Shown: positions 3,322 to 37,999 of the stretch, in pieces
Position numbering within the stretch: the first letter of the stretch is position 1
Layout of the letters: each line of letters begins with the position of its first letter
NCBI GenBank assembly: GCA_964630405.1
Contig: CAZVUC010000094.1
Location: forward strand, 4,158-68,157
Length of the DNA stretch: 64,000 nucleotides
Direction of reading: 5' to 3'
From: an uncultured Syntrophobacterales bacterium
GTDB lineage: Bacteria > Desulfobacterota > Binatia > UBA9968 > JAJDTQ01
Program-made: the position numbers and the translations under genes
The notes under the pieces: model-generated
Told to the model about the DNA's origin: nothing
What the model saw: only the letters and a program-made list of their open reading frames with translations
Databases searched by the model: none

Positions 3322-4344
3322 ATGAAACTGATCATTGCGCTCATCGTCGCTGTTTCGCTTGTTGCGGTCACGGGGGCCCAGGCCCAGGACAACGTCAAGG
3401 CCCTCTACGAGAAGGCCAAGAAGGAAGGGCAGGTGGTGCTGGCCGCAGGATCGCCGCCGGTGGCGCTGAAGGCGCAGATCGGCGGCTTCATGAAGCGGTT
3501 TCCGGGAATCCAGGTGAACCACATCCCGTCGACGGGATCCGACGCGTCGGCGAAGATACAGCTCGAGACCCGGGTGGGGATGGCGACCTACGAGGTGGCT
3601 CAGGCCACCACCACGTCGGCGGAGCGGCTGCTCAAGGCCGACCTGCTGGCGCCGTTTCCGTATCACGAGTTCGGCATCGCCAAGAACGAGATCTCGTTCG
3701 GGGAGCGGCTGGTGCCGTGGTTCGACCTGACCCGGGTGCTGGGGTTCAACACCAAGCTGGTCTCCAAGGACCAGGTGCCCACCACCTGGGAGGGGTTGCT
3801 GGACCCGAAATGGAAGGGCCGCAAGATCATCGTCGTGGGGCGGGGGTATCCGTTCGGAGACCTGGTGCCGGCGTGGGGGCTGGAGAAGACGATGGAGTAT
3901 ACCCGGAAGTTCAGGGCCCAGAACCCCATCATTCAGCCCCGGGGCGGACCCCAGACCCTGGAGGCCTTGGTGGCCGGGCAGGCGCCGCTGGCGTTGATCC
4001 AGTTCGACCGTGTCTTCAGGGCCAAGGTCAAGGACAAGGCGCCGGTCGACTTCATCTGGATCACGCCCATGTCGGTTACCCGCTTCTACTCCATCGCGGT
4101 GAAGAAGGTGCGCAATCCCAACGCGGCCAAGCTGCTGACCGGCTATCTCGGCACTCCCGAGGCGTCGGCGCTCATGGAGAAAACCTCCTTCCGGAGCCAG
4201 CTTGGGCCGAGCGCACAAACCGACGCCGCCAAGATGGCGCGCGCGGCCGGCGTCAAGTTCGTCTGGAACGCTCCCACCATGGAGGAAGCCCGGGAGCTCA
4301 AGAAGTGGCGTAAACAGGCCCGGAAGATCCTCACCGGACATTAG
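3322..4344 (+). CDS. ABC transporter substrate-binding protein (Fe3+/thiamine/polyamine-like cluster)
   Basis: Signal peptide MKLIIALIVAVSLVAVTGAQA after GGAGG; AKKEGQVV, PTTWEGLLDPKWKG, NPNAAKL. Confidence 0.85.
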   Translation: MKLIIALIVAVSLVAVTGAQAQDNVKALYEKAKKEGQVVLAAGSPPVALKAQIGGFMKRFPGIQVNHIPSTGSDASAKIQLETRVGMATYEVAQATTTSAERLLKADLLAPFPYHEFGIAKNEISFGERLVPWFDLTRVLGFNTKLVSKDQVPTTWEGLLDPKWKGRKIIVVGRGYPFGDLVPAWGLEKTMEYTRKFRAQNPIIQPRGGPQTLEALVAGQAPLALIQFDRVFRAKVKDKAPVDFIWITPMSVTRFYSIAVKKVRNPNAAKLLTGYLGTPEASALMEKTSFRSQLGPSAQTDAAKMARAAGVKFVWNAPTMEEARELKKWRKQARKILTGH

Positions 4345-27433: not shown

Positions 27434-28843
27434 ATGCCTCTCTGCGTCACCAACACCATGAGCGGCCAAAAGGAGCCGTTCGTTCCGCTGAACCCGGGCG
27501 TCGTCACCATGTACGTGTGCGGCGTCACCGTCTACGATCGGTGCCACATCGGTCATGCCCGCGCCTTGCTGACCTTCGACGTGATCTACCGGTACCTGTG
27601 TTTCCTCGGTTACGATTGCCGTTTCGTCAGGAATTTCACCGACGTGGACGACAAGATCATCAACCGGGCCCGCGAGGAAAGCGTCCCGCCGGAAGGGTTG
27701 GCTCAGCGCTATATCGACGAGTTCCACCGCGACGCCGCCGCCCTGGGCCTGCTGGAGCCGGCCGTGGAGCCTTGCGCCACCGGCCACATACCCGAGATGA
27801 TCGACATCATCTCCAGGCTGGTGGAGGGCGGCAACGCCTATGAGATGGGCGGCGACGTCTACTTCGCGGTGGAGAGTTTCCGGGACTACGGCAAGCTGTC
27901 GGGCCGCGGCCTCGAGGAGATGATGGCCGGGGCGAGGATCGAGGTGGACGACCGCAAGCGGCATCCCATGGATTTCGCGCTGTGGAAGGCGAGCAAGGAG
28001 GGGGAGCCCTTCTGGGACAGTCCGTGGGGGAGGGGACGGCCGGGATGGCACATCGAGTGCTCGGCCATGAGCACCAAGTACCTGGGCCAGCCGTTCGACA
28101 TCCACGGCGGCGGACAGGACCTGGTCTTTCCCCACAACGAGAACGAGATCGCCCAGTCGGAATGCGCCGCCGAGGCGCCCTTCGCCCGGTACTGGATCCA
28201 CAACGGCTTCGTGCAGCTCGCGAAGGAGAAGATGTCCAAGTCCACCGGGAACATCCTCAGCATCAGGGAGGTGCTGGAGCGCTTCGACCCCGTGGCCCTG
28301 CGTCTCTACATGCTGACGACCCACTACCGAAACCCCATTGAGTTCTCGGAGGAAGCCCTGGTGGAGGCCCAACGGGCCGTGGGCCGGGTCTACGAGACCG
28401 TGGGCCGGGCGGACCGGGCTCTGGGTCCGTCCTCCGACGGCGCCGTGGAACCGGGCCCCCTGGATGACTTCCGGCGGGAGATGGATGACGACTTCAACAC
28501 CCCGCGGGCCCTGGCCGTGGTGTTCGAGGAGGTTCGGGCCGTCAACCGGCTGCTGGACAGGGGAGGAAACCTCGACGCCCGGCGCAATGCGCTCCGGGCC
28601 ATGACCGAGACGCTGGGGCTCGTCCAGACACCCCCCGAGCATTTTCTCGCGGACAGGCGCAGGGCGGGCCTTTCGCGCCTGGCCTTGTCGGAGGAGGAGG
28701 TCCGGCAGCTCATCGAGGAACGGAACGAGGCGCGGAGGGTCAAGGATTGGGGGCAGGCGGACGGCATCCGTGACGGGTTGAAGGAGAAGGGCATCGTCTT
28801 GAAGGATGGTCCTTCCGGGACCACGTGGGAGCTGGCGGAGTGA
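27434..28843 (+). CDS. cysS: Cysteine--tRNA ligase
   Basis: MYVCGVTVYD, HIGH, GRPGWHIECSAM, HGGG, KMSKS. Confidence 0.98.
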   Translation: MPLCVTNTMSGQKEPFVPLNPGVVTMYVCGVTVYDRCHIGHARALLTFDVIYRYLCFLGYDCRFVRNFTDVDDKIINRAREESVPPEGLAQRYIDEFHRDAAALGLLEPAVEPCATGHIPEMIDIISRLVEGGNAYEMGGDVYFAVESFRDYGKLSGRGLEEMMAGARIEVDDRKRHPMDFALWKASKEGEPFWDSPWGRGRPGWHIECSAMSTKYLGQPFDIHGGGQDLVFPHNENEIAQSECAAEAPFARYWIHNGFVQLAKEKMSKSTGNILSIREVLERFDPVALRLYMLTTHYRNPIEFSEEALVEAQRAVGRVYETVGRADRALGPSSDGAVEPGPLDDFRREMDDDFNTPRALAVVFEEVRAVNRLLDRGGNLDARRNALRAMTETLGLVQTPPEHFLADRRRAGLSRLALSEEEVRQLIEERNEARRVKDWGQADGIRDGLKEKGIVLKDGPSGTTWELAE

Positions 28844-34252: not shown

Positions 34253-34975
34253 TTACCGCGCCCAGTGACGGGCCACGTTGGCCACCGAGACCTCGCGGCT
34301 GCCGTTACGTATCTGATACAGCGTCCGTTCCGTAGTCTCGAGGCAGCTCAGAACGTTGCCGTAGACGAGGCCCGTATCGAGGCCGATCTTGTAGGGCAGG
34401 TTGAAGAAGACGTCCTTCATCGGGGTGTGGCCGAACAACACCGTCCGGGACAGCCCGTGCGGATTCGTGATGAACTCGTGCCGAATCCAGATGAGTTCCT
34501 CGTCCACCTGGTGCTCCCATGAACGTTGCGGATTCACACCGGCGTGGACGCAGAGAAAACCGTCCATGAAATACCAGGGTTCCAGTCTCACGAAGAACTC
34601 GATGTGGTCCGGCGGCAGGGCCTCCAGCAGCCGCTGGCCGTCGGCGGGGCCCGGCCTTCCCGCCGGCGCCGTCACGCCGTAGCTCGTCAGCGTCGCAACC
34701 CCGCCGTTCAGGAGAAACGCGTCGCCGTGATTCCCCGAAAGGCCCATGAACGACAGCATCATGTCCTCGTGGTTGCCCCTGAGGAACACCGTCTCCTGCT
34801 CGCCCCGCCCGCGCAACGCCAGCAGATAGTCGACCACGCCCCTGGAGTCGGGCCCGCGGTCGATGTAGTCGCCGAGGAAGACCACGGTGTCGCCGCGTTC
34901 CAGCGGCAGAAACTCGACCAGCGCGGTCAACTCGGGCAGGCATCCGTGCACGTCACCGATCACGTAGGATTTCAT
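34253..34975 (-). CDS. PPP-family metallophosphoesterase (Ser/Thr protein phosphatase-like)
   Basis: GDVHG, GDYIDRG, RGNHE, VHAG, FGHTP, LDTG. Confidence 0.93.
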   Translation of the reverse strand: MKSYVIGDVHGCLPELTALVEFLPLERGDTVVFLGDYIDRGPDSRGVVDYLLALRGRGEQETVFLRGNHEDMMLSFMGLSGNHGDAFLLNGGVATLTSYGVTAPAGRPGPADGQRLLEALPPDHIEFFVRLEPWYFMDGFLCVHAGVNPQRSWEHQVDEELIWIRHEFITNPHGLSRTVLFGHTPMKDVFFNLPYKIGLDTGLVYGNVLSCLETTERTLYQIRNGSREVSVANVARHWAR

Positions 34976-35028
34976 CGAGCCCTCCGTGTTGACCCCTCAA
35001 CAAGGGTTGGTTATCGTGCGAGACGGCC

Positions 35029-35391
35029 ATGAAGTCGACGCATCTGTACCTGAACCCGTTTTTCGCGTTCGGCATGGTGCTCGTGCTGCTTGGCGCCGGC
35101 AACTGGATCGTCGGCGCGGTGCAGGTGGCGCATTACCGAGCCTTGGTGGACGCCGGTTCGAAGGCGAGGGCGGAGGACCGACCCGGCGGCTCCAGGGAGT
35201 TGAGTACGACGAAGAGCACGGAGATTTTGGGCCGGATCCATGAAGAGAGGGAGAAGTACAACGCCGCCCGGATCAAGGTGGACTTCTTCTACGTGGTGCT
35301 CAGGGGCGGCTTGCTGCTCTTTTTCGCGGGGTTGGGTTTCAGCATTTTCGCCCTGGTCAAAACCGTGCGCCGGCACGCTCCGACGCCGTGA
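35029..35391 (+). CDS. Hypothetical membrane protein (2 TM helices)
   Basis: ATG start, N- and C-terminal hydrophobic segments, fills the gap between minus-strand genes. Confidence 0.7.
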   Translation: MKSTHLYLNPFFAFGMVLVLLGAGNWIVGAVQVAHYRALVDAGSKARAEDRPGGSRELSTTKSTEILGRIHEEREKYNAARIKVDFFYVVLRGGLLLFFAGLGFSIFALVKTVRRHAPTP

Positions 35392-35399
35392 CGGTGCGG

Positions 35400-36464
35400 T
35401 TACCGGGAAGGCTTCGATTTCTGATATTTCCGGTAGTCGTACCCGGTGGCCATGGACAACAGCAGGTCTTCCATGCCGCCGTCCTTTTCCCGCCGGAGGA
35501 TCAGGAGCCGTTCGAAGAAGTCGATGAACGTCTTCTGGATGCGTTGCCGCTCGCCCTGTTCCCGGAGATAGAAGTCGTACAGGCTGGTGACGGCCGTCCT
35601 CAAGGCCGAGAAGCGGAGCTCGTTGGGGAAGGAATCCCACTCGGGCAGCGACAGCGGCCGTAGACCTTCGTAACCCAGAATCAGCTCTTCGAACCGCTCC
35701 AGCCGATACCGCCCCTCGTAATAGCAGACGGCGTTCACGGTGGTCGCCAGGTCACAGATGAACTTCCCGCGGCAGGCCCTGTCGAAGTTCATGATGCCGA
35801 CGAGACGCGAGCCCTTGAACTTCATGCTTTCCCAGGACAGATTCCCGTGGATGATGCCCTTGGGCAGGTTGTTGTCGAGATATCCTTCCAGGTAGTTGAC
35901 CTCGTCATCCAGCACTCGCACGATAGTCTTGAGATGCGCCGGCAGGTTTCTCCTCACGTCCTGGTACATCGCCGCCACCCGTGGAAACGAAAAGCGGTTC
36001 TCGACCCCTTTCTTGTAACCCCTGCCGATGAGGTGCAGGTCCGCGAGCACGTGTCCCGCGGCCGAAAGCTGCGCCAGCGTGAGATCGCCCACCGGCACCT
36101 CGGTGCCGTCGATGTTGCGGCTGGCGGAAATGAAGCGGCCGTCCGCCTGGAGGTAGTGCTGGCCGCCGCGGCTCTTCAAGGGCTGCAGGCACTGGAAGCC
36201 GTGGCGCCGCAGGAACAGCAGCAGCTCGATGTCGTGCTTGACCTCGTTCTCGCTCTTGATCCCCTCGATGGAGACGACGAACTTGCCGCGTTTGGTCTCC
36301 ATTATGAAGAACGGTTCGGCGGATTCTCGATGAAGCCCCGCGGCGGAGAAGAATTCGCCCAGGGAGAACTCCTCGGCTATGCCGGCAAGTTCTCGTGCCT
36401 GGGGTTGGGACAAGGTTTCGGCGGCGAAGTTCTTTTCCAGCGGTTTCGCTTCCGTGGACAGCAT
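35400..36464 (-). CDS. APH / homoserine kinase type II fold protein with degenerate catalytic motifs
   Basis: LADLHLIG, LPKGIIHGNL, GIMNFDRAC, DLA, GYEGLRPLS, LRFSALR match the ThrB-II layout. Confidence 0.8.
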   Translation of the reverse strand: MLSTEAKPLEKNFAAETLSQPQARELAGIAEEFSLGEFFSAAGLHRESAEPFFIMETKRGKFVVSIEGIKSENEVKHDIELLLFLRRHGFQCLQPLKSRGGQHYLQADGRFISASRNIDGTEVPVGDLTLAQLSAAGHVLADLHLIGRGYKKGVENRFSFPRVAAMYQDVRRNLPAHLKTIVRVLDDEVNYLEGYLDNNLPKGIIHGNLSWESMKFKGSRLVGIMNFDRACRGKFICDLATTVNAVCYYEGRYRLERFEELILGYEGLRPLSLPEWDSFPNELRFSALRTAVTSLYDFYLREQGERQRIQKTFIDFFERLLILRREKDGGMEDLLLSMATGYDYRKYQKSKPSR

Positions 36465-36588
36465 ATTAGATCTTTCTATTACTCAGTTGGGGACTATTTG
36501 TCAACATTTTCCCGGTTGAGCCGTGAACAACTCGCGTTTCGCGAACGCACTTGGGCGCGACCGCGCTCCGGCTCACGCATCGGATAGC

Positions 36589-36604
36589 TGCATTTTTCGT
36601 GCCA
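36589..36604 (-). promoter_or_regulatory. Sigma54 (-24/-12) promoter
   Basis: Minus strand TGGCACGAAAAATGCA versus consensus TGGCACG-N4-TTGCW. Confidence 0.8.
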
Positions 36605-36609
36605 TTGGC

Positions 36610-36622
36610 CAACTTGTTGATA
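36610..36622 (-). promoter_or_regulatory. IHF binding site
   Basis: Minus strand TATCAACAAGTTG equals consensus WATCAANNNNTTR, just upstream of the -24 box. Confidence 0.65.
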
Positions 36623-36647
36623 TTTGGACGGTTTCGTTTGGCGGGAC

Positions 36648-36732
36648 TCGACGAAATCGTCGATGCGAGTTGGGGTATATGCATATTTCTTTCATGAAAA
36701 CAGTAGGTTATGCGTTTCGACGATTTCGTCGC
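36648..36732. promoter_or_regulatory. Two palindromic boxes, putative enhancer (UAS) sites
   Basis: TCGACG-AAAT-CGTCGA (36648-36663) and TCGACG-ATTT-CGTCGC (36717-36732) flanking an AT-rich spacer. Confidence 0.6.
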
Positions 36733-36847
36733 CACCCGGGACTCGAGAACTCGGCAAGGCCGCTTCCGGTTTGAAGTTCGCGGTCCGTAGAGATAGGATG
36801 AAACGTCTGTCCAACCGGTGGACGACCGGAACGAATGGAAACGGTTG

Positions 36848-37261
36848 ATGGTTGAAGACGATGGCAAGGCTGACGTGGACACGGTCGCCCCGATGCCCGA
36901 GGAGCAGCCGGACCTGTACTATCACGGGATCATTCGGCGCCTTTCACCGCGAAAGGGCACGGGAGTCGTCCGCACGGCCAGCGGCAAGGACGTACGGTTC
37001 TCGTACCAGATGGTTCTGATGTCCGGCCCGGTGAAGTCGCCCAAGGGCCTCAGAGAGGGGATGGTGGTCGGGTACGATCTCGGCTGGACGAGCCACGGGC
37101 TTCGGGTAATCAAGATAAGGACATACCCCCGAAGGGACTGGGCCCCGGGAGGCCGGAGGCGCGAGTCGGACGGGCTTCTAGCGGGGCAGCAGGGTCAGGG
37201 CGAGGATCTGGCTGGAGAGAAGCTCCCCCACGAAGACGCCGAGCAGGGCGATGTAGAATAG
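36848..37261 (+). CDS. Hypothetical protein with degenerate cold-shock (OB-fold) domain
   Basis: HGIIRRLSPRKGTGVVRTASGKDVRF...LREGMVVGYDL...GLRVIKI follows CSD spacing; 3' end overlaps the convergent gene. Confidence 0.65.
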   Translation: MVEDDGKADVDTVAPMPEEQPDLYYHGIIRRLSPRKGTGVVRTASGKDVRFSYQMVLMSGPVKSPKGLREGMVVGYDLGWTSHGLRVIKIRTYPRRDWAPGGRRRESDGLLAGQQGQGEDLAGEKLPHEDAEQGDVE

Positions 37262-37999
37262 GCCCGTGGCCGCCATGGTGTTCTTGAAGTCCGCGAGGGT
37301 CTTCCAGATCATGTATGAAAGCAGGAGCGGGCCGAGCTGGGCGACGAAAAAGCGCGAAAGCAGCAGCAGCAGGTGGTGGCTGAACAGGCGTTCGATGGCC
37401 GCCACGGTTTCTCCGGTGCCGAGCAGGTAGAGGAGGGCGGTGGAGACGACCTCCAGGCCGGTCTGGATGACCAGCATCGTTACGAAGAAGCGGAAGACCC
37501 GGAAGAACGGTTCGAGGCTCTGGCCGGTTTCAATCAGGTACCAGTGGCCGATCAGCATGCCTACGGTGACGGCCCCCAGCAGCAGCGAGGATACGACGAA
37601 GCTGACGGGAAGGAATACGGCTTCCACCGGTCCGAGAGGGCCGTGGGAGAAACCGAAGGAGGCCACGATGATCCCGGTTACGCCGACCAGGATCGCGGTG
37701 GAGAAGAAGCGCGCGCGCAGGAACGCCCGTTCGCCCCACAACGTTATGAAGTAAAGGACCAGGAACAGGGTGAAACACCCTAATAGAATGAGATTTATGA
37801 TTTGGCCGAACCCCTGCGCCCGTGGCAGGAGGTCGAGTTGCCCCCACAGCGCCAGCACCGCGGCGGCCACCAGCACCCCGGCGGTGGATTTGTAGAAGCC
37901 CCTCTCCAGATCCGTGAACGGGGTCACGGACAGACCCACCAGGCCGCCAACCGACAACTGGTAGAGAAACATCACGAACGCTGCGGCGTAAGGGTTCAT
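37178..37999 (-). CDS. Polytopic membrane protein of unknown function (GHWYL motif)
   Basis: About 8 TM helices; MLIGHWYL and MAATGLFY motifs; co-oriented with ubiE/menG. Confidence 0.8.
   Translation of the reverse strand: MNPYAAAFVMFLYQLSVGGLVGLSVTPFTDLERGFYKSTAGVLVAAAVLALWGQLDLLPRAQGFGQIINLILLGCFTLFLVLYFITLWGERAFLRARFFSTAILVGVTGIIVASFGFSHGPLGPVEAVFLPVSFVVSSLLLGAVTVGMLIGHWYLIETGQSLEPFFRVFRFFVTMLVIQTGLEVVSTALLYLLGTGETVAAIERLFSHHLLLLLSRFFVAQLGPLLLSYMIWKTLADFKNTMAATGLFYIALLGVFVGELLSSQILALTLLPR

Follow-up and report, generated by a model that had tools for sequence, protein, structure and literature searches.

A predicted pseudokinase of ThrB-II type and its candidate NtrC-type sigma-54 regulon in an uncultured Binatia genus

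Activation of sigma-54 promoters by NtrC-family regulators that bind upstream inverted repeats, with or without an integration host factor (IHF) site, is a textbook layout of bacterial gene control. To our knowledge, bacterial pseudokinases derived from small-molecule (CAK) kinases are so far predictions only, with no role assigned to any of them. Here we analyse a locus that bears on both subjects: a gene for a ThrB-II-like protein with degenerate catalytic motifs, preceded by a sigma-54-type promoter element and two palindromes, in a 64,000-nucleotide stretch of DNA (the window; positions 4,158 to 68,157 of contig CAZVUC010000094.1) from an uncultured Syntrophobacterales bacterium of the class Binatia. 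The genome assembly (GCA_964630405.1, here G000) comprises 96 contigs, is 93% complete and amounts to 3.47 Mb. The reading that we favour, with moderate confidence, is that the protein is a predicted pseudokinase that arose from a Binatia ThrB-II-type kinase and was recruited into an older NtrC-type sigma-54 regulon together with an HtrA protease.

Predicted pseudokinases of the CAK group have been described among the bacterial spore kinases (the BSK/CotS proteins), with HSK2, the ThrB-II type of homoserine kinase, as closest structural relative (Scheeff et al. 2010, PMC2860764). According to the passages of that paper used here, BSK proteins are conserved even though the catalytic Asp and further motifs have gone, which was read as a sign of non-catalytic function, and no BSK protein had been assayed. 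The Binatia protein is likewise a conserved CAK protein without the catalytic Asp, predicted from sequence as the BSK/CotS proteins were, but it belongs to a different family and phylum, has no spore context, and comes with identifiable orthologues that resemble an active ancestor, a point of loss and a regulon. Homoserine kinase does not occur in the passages retrieved from a 2025 review on Ser/Thr pseudokinases of bacteria (PMC12599244). Within the collection of papers searched, homoserine kinase combined with pseudokinase returned nothing on this type of protein among the matches listed, and nothing was found that links Binatia with sigma-54; for a sigma-54 enhancer-binding protein together with HtrA and a two-component system nothing related was found, judging by the title and the opening lines of the abstract.

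The gene in question is the following; all positions are those within the window.

35400-36464, minus strand: ThrB-II-like gene (APH/CAK fold) for 354 amino acids with degenerate catalytic motifs, defined by translation, profile and structure comparison.

Its product belongs to the APH/CAK fold (PF01636, 45.9 bits against a cut-off of 23.2), and ThrB-II/HSK2 is the best match by sequence and by structure. The only sequence match in the PDB is the Agrobacterium ThrB-II (2ppq, E = 2.7e-23), and the structure prediction that the preliminary description of this locus had called for agrees: an AlphaFold2 model (pLDDT 75.2, pTM 0.76) has 2ppq as its top Foldseek match (TMt 0.82) and further CAK kinases next in rank, among 299 PDB matches at E ≤ 0.001, suggesting a predicted fold shared with ThrB-II. 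The protein is nevertheless not to be filed as a ThrB-II member, as it scores well below the equivalog cut-offs (NF003558, 121.5 bits against 271; TIGR00938, 116.7 against 255.9), carries degenerate motifs, has lost the nucleotide loop and ends in a C-terminal tail that is longer and hardly varies. A search of 5.8 billion proteins returned 1,087 relatives, most of which have 340 amino acids, are about 60-65% identical and carry HGDxxxDN, DFE and an NGSVNT loop; five such canonical relatives from Binatia score 197-224 bits on the ThrB-II models. Members of the kinase-like family are present in 103 of 123 genomes of the order (100 of 120 without three unpublished genomes, on which no conclusion here depends).

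In the alignment with 2ppq, HGNLSWES (residues 206-213) stands opposite HADLFQDN and NFD (226-228) opposite DFY, so the alterations that the preliminary description had seen in the catalytic Asp, the Mg-binding Asn and the Mg-binding Asp are all real; furthermore, the nucleotide loop reads RESAEP where canonical relatives have NGSVNT. Position 65, Lys in canonical Binatia proteins and Ser here, was considered as the ATP-binding Lys and dropped, 2ppq having Thr at that place.

These losses extend across the genus. The catalytic Asp is replaced by Asn (HGN) in 26 of the 27 species, G021 having HGD; the Mg-binding Asn of HxDxxxxN is lost in all 27 (Ser in 26, Gly in one), as is the GSVNT loop; and the DFx Asp is Asn in 19 species and Asp in eight. 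The exchange of Asp for Asn, whose conservation had been left to an alignment of homologues, is therefore fixed broadly but not universally. Outside the genus, HGD was found in all 135 relatives examined, and DN in all but one; these comprise five proteins from other families of the order, 75 metagenome loci and 55 genome-contig loci, sets that partly overlap and are not independent. Intermediate forms also exist. Metagenome proteins P0008, P0009 and P0012 combine HGN with DFE, two of the three still having the Asn, and the fragment L060, additional to the 135 and cut off before its upstream DNA, is a single metagenome locus of the intermediate kind, with HGNLSWEN. These forms would fit loss of the catalytic base as the first step; no gene resembling P0012 above 67% identity was found among the genomes of the order.

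What was kept was scored over the 186 positions with at least 95% identity across 112 distinct canonical sequences. In the genus 143 of these are retained, with the losses gathered mainly in the N-terminal lobe and the catalytic/DFx segment; by region the numbers are as follows.

N-terminal lobe (N-lobe): 15 of 33 kept.
Catalytic/DFx segment: 18 of 25 kept.
Linker helices: 34 of 40 kept.
Rest of the C-terminal lobe (C-lobe): 49 of 59 kept.
C-terminal tail: 27 of 29 kept.

The ratio of nonsynonymous to synonymous substitution rates (dN/dS) has a pairwise median of 0.073 in the genus (289 of 300 pairs with usable dS); by region it is 0.077 (N-lobe), 0.059 (C-lobe) and close to 0 (tail). An intact frame of 349-362 amino acids is present in all 25 genus loci tabulated. 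Lost catalytic residues, a retained fold and purifying selection together mark the protein, at the level of its sequence, as a probable pseudokinase, and the pattern of motif retention and selection is what one would look for in a protein whose catalysis was abandoned while its function was kept. A decaying pseudogene, or a kinase broken in one strain, would likewise have lost catalytic residues, but the intact frames, the low dN/dS and the fixation of the substitutions across 27 species already refute this explanation, whose probability we regard as negligible; strain-specific decay, which the preliminary description had named among the outcomes that would undo its proposal, is not what is seen.

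A more serious alternative is a protein that continues to work as a kinase and may be the sole homoserine kinase of the genus, with an unusual active site in which Asn would serve in place of the catalytic Asp and Glu212 or other residues would bind the metal; sigma-54 would then regulate the supply of threonine and methionine precursors. No known type of homoserine kinase appears to be present in the genus otherwise: GHMP-type ThrB above the cut-off was found in none of 41 genomes of the order, the window genome has no match to TIGR02535 and no second ThrB-II-like gene, and an apgM/HomK-like gene (TIGR00306), present in 16 of 16 genomes of two other families, is found in none of 25 genus genomes. 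The sole other APH-fold protein of the genome is AmgK-like and lies beside a MurU-like gene, and five ThrC-like genes score above the cut-off. Strong selection on the whole protein, N-lobe included, also speaks for a working kinase, as do the DFD of eight species and the HGD of one. According to the passages of the GapMind 2026 preprint used here, 8% of prototrophs have an unfilled gap at thrB, such gaps are not to be read as auxotrophy, and a missing thrB gives no clue to what takes its place, so that the first of these points lends the working-kinase explanation some support and the last takes some away. Against it stand the losses themselves, of the catalytic Asp in 26 of 27 species, of the Mg-binding Asn and the GSVNT loop in all 27 and of the DFx Asp in 19, which cluster exactly at the ATP/Mg site and go with a fall of the ThrB-II model score to about 120 bits, from some 200-224. 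We judge a working kinase to be unlikely, though well worth keeping in view, because separate elements of catalysis and of nucleotide binding, several in number, were lost together.

The best of the ThrC-like genes (G000:C17:33625-37028) encodes an N-terminal Cys-rich ribbon and lies between ThiF/MoeB-like and cysteine-synthase-like genes, an arrangement reminiscent, by analogy, of thiocarboxylate-dependent sulfur amino-acid pathways.

The region upstream of the kinase-like gene contains the following elements, in the order in which they are met on the minus strand on the way to its start codon.

36732-36717, both strands: distal palindrome GCGACGAAATCGTCGA (plus strand TCGACGATTTCGTCGC), centre at about -146 from the predicted +1.
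36663-36648, both strands: proximal palindrome TCGACGATTTCGTCGA, centre at about -77 from the predicted +1; proposed site of a bacterial enhancer-binding protein (bEBP), that is, a candidate upstream activating sequence.
36622-36610, minus strand: match to the IHF consensus, TATCAACAAGTTG, exact (WATCAANNNNTTR), by direct reading.
36604-36589, minus strand: sigma-54-type -24/-12 element TGGCACGAAAAATGCA, by direct reading and orthologue conservation.
36476-36504, minus strand: leader element TTGACA-N17-TAATAG, with its downstream end 12 nt from the ATG, from a 25-species alignment.

The minus strand was read directly, and the positions that the preliminary description had given for the box, both palindromes, the IHF consensus and the HGNLSWES and NFD motifs proved correct. 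Compared with TGGCACG-N4-TTGCW, TGGCACGAAAAATGCA has one mismatch, A replacing the first T of TTGC. The transcription start would lie near 36578, as in the preliminary description, a position obtained by arithmetic only, with the C of the GC doublet (36590) set as -12, and would leave a leader of about 114 nt before the open reading frame (ORF). The two palindromes are 69 bp apart, and the distal one lies about 85-115 bp upstream of a divergent small gene. The four elements from 36732 to 36589 thus run from distal palindrome through proximal palindrome and IHF-consensus match to the -24/-12 box. With the textbook NtrC-type layout they share the box and the inverted repeats some 50-150 bp upstream, and with it too goes an activator of REC/AAA+/Fis-type helix-turn-helix (HTH) architecture in an autoregulated operon, described below; one difference is that the IHF-like core is found right next to the -24 box and not midway.

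As bare strings, these elements give mixed evidence. TGGCAC-N6-TGCW occurs twice in the window against 0.25 expected, a number reached in 3 of 100 shuffles; the second occurrence, at 28046-28061 on the plus strand, lies in a region covered by long ORFs and we take it to be a chance match. Genome-wide there are 12 matches, against about 13.6 by our own scaling of the window expectation. The exact IHF consensus is found once in the window, at this site (0.22 expected; 19 of 100 shuffles reach one), and the skeleton CGAC-N6-GTCG twice against 3.58 expected, hence it is not rare by itself. By comparison, the A/T-cored form CGACGA-WW-TCGTCG has no match in the 3.47-Mb genome other than the two palindromes. 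Support for the promoter therefore comes from position and conservation and not from the rarity of its strings.

That conservation is extensive. Each of 24 other genus genomes sampled has a single orthologue at 85-99% identity, and an orthologue is present in 27 of 27 genus genomes of a family-wide draw. In all of the 25 genus loci compared, the orthologue is preceded by a TGGCAY-N6-TGC box (TGGCAY in 24, CGGCAC in one), 94-167 nt before the start codon, accompanied in all 25 by two or three CGAC-N6-GTCG sites in register. In the 25-species alignment the palindrome blocks are invariant islands amid otherwise diverged DNA, the proximal site keeping an invariant CGAC...GTCGA block and the distal site a CGAC-N6-GTCG-AA block in all 25. 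Box and sites were also found in four of four genus-type metagenome loci, and the strict pattern in 24 of 25 genus-type genome-contig loci, the 25th having the CGGCAC variant. Upstream of canonical genes, box and palindromes together were found in none of 75 metagenome loci (57 with the full 450 nt), in none of 54 readable genome-contig loci (a 55th being too short; two of the 54 have a box-like string and no palindrome) and in none of four loci from other families of the order. We conclude from this distribution that the promoter and the paired upstream sites are, as judged by comparison of orthologous DNA, real phylogenetic footprints. The box with its GG and GC doublets 10 bp apart, its position upstream of a gene and the presence of rpoN in the genome, which also has four bEBP genes, indicate a probable sigma-54 promoter; the inverted repeats, about 70-150 bp upstream and recurring at other sigma-54 promoters, are likewise plausible upstream activating sequences. 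On both counts the preliminary description, which had proposed this promoter with its paired sites and had asked whether they recur before orthologues, is borne out.

Its third element, the IHF site, fares less well. The consensus is exact here, but in the 45 nt upstream of the box of the 25 genus loci the best IHF match has no mismatch in six, one in six, two in four and three or four in nine, so that exact conservation is confined to six species. Shuffled sequences give at most one mismatch 2.6% of the time, against 12 of 25 loci observed. The IHF-like core ends 5 nt from the -24 box, and the same columns double as a palindrome: a third CGAC-N6-GTCG copy is found in the upstream region of eight species, and in at least five of them it occupies the IHF columns. 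The element at 36610-36622 may be an IHF site or, as an alternative, a degenerate, weak third copy of the activator site. Strings related to TTTCrAC-NN-sTTGG also follow the palindromes at the two other promoters introduced below, those of htrA and C26.

Sigma-54 may not be the sole input, given the second conserved element just upstream of the ATG. In our reading of the alignment, about 23 of 25 genus loci retain the TTGACA of this leader element. The whole, TTGACA-N17-TAATAG, could be a sigma-70-like promoter or an operator. If it were a housekeeping promoter, it could provide most of the expression and leave sigma-54 to give a conditional boost only, and strictly speaking the gene would then not be sigma-54-controlled; the presence of the element in about 23 of 25 loci, its perfect -35 hexamer and its 17-nt spacing are in keeping with this idea. 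Its -10 hexamer TAATAG, however, is poor for this genome, and a sigma-70 scan made no call at 36476-36504 because the second hexamer ends in G; moreover, transcription from it would leave a leader of about 5 nt, a nearly leaderless mRNA that in most species would cut off a GGAGG-like ribosome site. An operator, or a feature of the RNA, would be just as possible. We therefore hold a dominant housekeeping promoter to be improbable, to much the same degree as a working kinase. The scan for sigma-70 promoters and terminators in the region gave two promoter-like sites, both within coding sequence, and one weak terminator-like site at 37264-37278, with nothing called at the leader element or after the stop codon; an Rfam scan of 35000-37500 at E ≤ 1 gave no match. 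Elsewhere in the leader, roughly ten species of the genus (loci L012-L023) have a DnaA-box-like TTATCCACA, degenerate here as TTGTTCACG (36522-36530, minus strand), and loci L024-L029 have tandem TTGTTGATAG-like repeats in its place.

The palindromes also lead beyond this gene. A position matrix built from 58 sites of the genus ranks the two window sites first in a scan of the genome, with the proximal one at the top, and its fourth match, G000:C38:19192, lies about 100 bp upstream of TGGCACGAAAGGTGCT, which is followed by the genes of an operon; a further promoter of the same kind, at G000:C26:6997-7089, consists of a palindrome and a sigma-54 box, TGGCACGTTGTTTGCG, before a 75-amino-acid ORF. 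The genes at these two loci are as follows.

C38 operon, gene 1 (htrA): DegP/HtrA-like protease with Trypsin_2 and PDZ domains.
C38 operon, gene 2: Cache-domain histidine kinase with sCache_3_2, HisKA and HATPase_c.
G000:C38:22744-24207: NtrC-type response regulator with REC, Sigma54_activat and HTH_8 (Fis-type HTH).
G000:C26:7134-7358: 75-amino-acid ORF with no Pfam family, upstream of pyrB- and pyrD-like genes.

Before htrA, TCGAC-N6-GTCGA lies 91-113 bp upstream of TGGCAY-N6-TGC in 28 of 28 loci from 27 genus genomes, and the histidine kinase gene follows htrA in all 28. Of 25 genus genomes, 24 have the 75-amino-acid ORF, as against none of 16 genomes of other families. When the two elements are combined into one pattern, TCGAC-N6-GTCGA-N30-110-TGGCAY-N6-TGC, each of 28 genus genomes has one to four matches (one each in G013 and in G018, the latter 76% complete), whereas the reversed pattern, used as a control, has one match in total. 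By our own reading the matches fall at three recurring loci, the htrA operon in 27 genomes, the kinase-like gene in 12 and the C26 locus in 22-24. Other matches of the matrix (C33:22236 and others) were rejected as regulon members for want of a nearby sigma-54 box, C26:6996, the third promoter, being the exception; G000:C16:47008-47142 (TGGCACGAAACCTGC) was rejected in turn, as it has no counterpart of the pattern in the other 27 genus genomes. A gene for an RpoD-like sigma factor of 505 amino acids with regions 1.2, 2, 3 and 4 (G000:C38:24518-26035) lies about 300 bp after the gene of the NtrC-type regulator.

The arrangement is found in a sister family as well, where the combined pattern occurs in 14 of 31 genomes with no control match (14 of 29 without two unpublished genomes, neither of which has a match). 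At the 20 loci fetched, the pattern is upstream of an orthologous sensor kinase in five and of htrA in two; the best matches to htrA in that family are mostly paralogues without the promoter. Because the same arrangement stands before orthologous kinase or htrA genes in the sister family, the module of site and box is, on comparative grounds, older than the recruitment: it predates the genus, and the kinase-like gene would have been recruited to it.

From its linkage to the C38 site, we infer that the NtrC-type regulator of this operon is the probable binder of the palindromes. The preliminary description had proposed dedicated sigma-54 control in an undescribed regulatory module, and had suggested scanning the genome for the palindrome and listing its bEBPs. 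The scan and the list gave the two A/T-cored sites and the four bEBP genes mentioned above. The control is not dedicated, since the same palindrome and sigma-54 promoter precede the htrA operon (28 of 28 loci) and the 75-amino-acid gene, and the module can be identified, through the palindrome it shares with the htrA/kinase/bEBP operon, as a candidate two-component sigma-54 regulon. We know of no earlier description of the TCGAC-N6-GTCGA site or of a regulon that unites an HtrA protease, a 75-amino-acid protein and a pseudokinase.

The palindromes might instead be operators of another regulator, a repressor or a regulator of the small gene, in which case they would not be enhancers, and activation of the sigma-54 promoter would fall to another bEBP or come from sites elsewhere. 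The intergenic region is divergent, with the distal site within about 100 bp of the start of the small gene; the third copy in eight species abuts the -24 box in at least five, a place typical of repressors; and no bEBP gene is adjacent to the kinase-like gene. These features would suit an operator, but at three unlinked loci across the genus the site keeps a fixed distance upstream of a sigma-54 box, with one match of the reversed control, one of these loci encodes an NtrC-type activator with a Fis-type HTH, and the arrangement recurs in the sister family. On balance we regard operators as very unlikely, less probable than either a working kinase or a dominant housekeeping promoter.

The reading of a recruited pseudokinase can be put as a sequence of steps. 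In the lineage of the genus, the catalytic Asp would have become Asn, the Mg-binding Asn and the nucleotide-positioning loop would have been lost, and the DFx Asp would have become Asn in most species, while the C-lobe and the 34-residue C-terminal tail stayed almost invariant. That near-invariance argues that the protein was kept for a non-catalytic job, which may be the binding of its old substrate, of a related ligand or of a partner; the role of ligand sensor or scaffold put forward in the preliminary description is likewise conjectural. In the same lineage the gene would have gained a sigma-54 promoter with two to three TCGAC-N6-GTCGA sites, to which the NtrC-family regulator, phosphorylated by the histidine kinase of its operon, would bind, activating three promoters: that of its own operon, that of the 75-amino-acid gene and that of the kinase-like gene.

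Several points weigh against this reading. HGD is retained in one species of the genus and DFD in eight, and the lack of any other recognisable homoserine kinase, together with the five ThrC-like genes, leaves room for residual or unusual kinase activity. The sigma-54 box as a bare string is not above chance genome-wide, and the other three bEBPs of the genome are also possible activators. Finally, the genus genomes are one clade; because all degenerate forms fall within it, the association of motif loss with the promoter counts as one event, not as 25.

A more specific version of the recruitment reading can be imagined, in which the former kinase still binds homoserine or a related metabolite with its intact C-lobe and tail and, as an output of a sigma-54 stress regulon made up of HtrA, Cache kinase and NtrC-type regulator, couples amino-acid status to the stress response, perhaps together with the 75-amino-acid protein or with the phosphoesterase encoded downstream. 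O-phosphohomoserine would then have to come from a kinase of unknown type, since every known type is missing in the genus. We consider this version speculative and somewhat less probable than a working kinase.

The neighbourhood of the gene is common to canonical and degenerate loci, with the order polyprenyl synthase, UbiE, 273-amino-acid membrane protein, divergent small gene, kinase-like gene, 120-amino-acid membrane protein and metallophosphoesterase. The features adjoining the kinase-like gene are these.

36848-37261, plus strand: divergent small gene for a cold-shock/OB-like small protein; the ORF is listed from 36818, and the conserved part begins near Met 11.
35029-35391, plus strand: convergent gene for a predicted membrane protein of 120 amino acids, syntenic with the kinase-like gene throughout Binatia.
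34253-34975, minus strand: ApaH/PrpE-like metallophosphoesterase of 240 amino acids (PF00149, E = 5.4e-18; NCBIfam matches below the cut-off).

Residues 10-107, approximately, of the small protein are conserved in 25 of 25 genus loci (tblastn) and in many canonical loci; it has no Pfam match and a weak match to NF038236 (retron Se72 effector) at 22.9 bits against 82. In canonical Binatia loci the small gene follows a NuoB-like gene, which belongs to an extra 1.3-2 kb between the small gene and the kinase gene. The 120-amino-acid protein has weak matches only, to DUF6249 and Trp_oprn_chp, and the metallophosphoesterase gene, downstream on the same strand as the kinase-like gene, is syntenic in canonical and degenerate loci alike. 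Two sister-family genomes each have two copies of the canonical kinase locus, equal in score and close to the ends of contigs (G025:C1:2690-3688 and 3303200-3304198; G027, C1 and C2), possibly an assembly overlap rather than a duplication.

For the biology of these uncultured bacteria, the analysis flags a genus that would be without a visible known route to O-phosphohomoserine, and it puts forward what would be the first regulatory motif and regulon for the class Binatia. With active orthologues in sister families, a dated point of loss, a defined regulon and a candidate activator with its site, the role of a metabolic kinase that is probably dead becomes testable.

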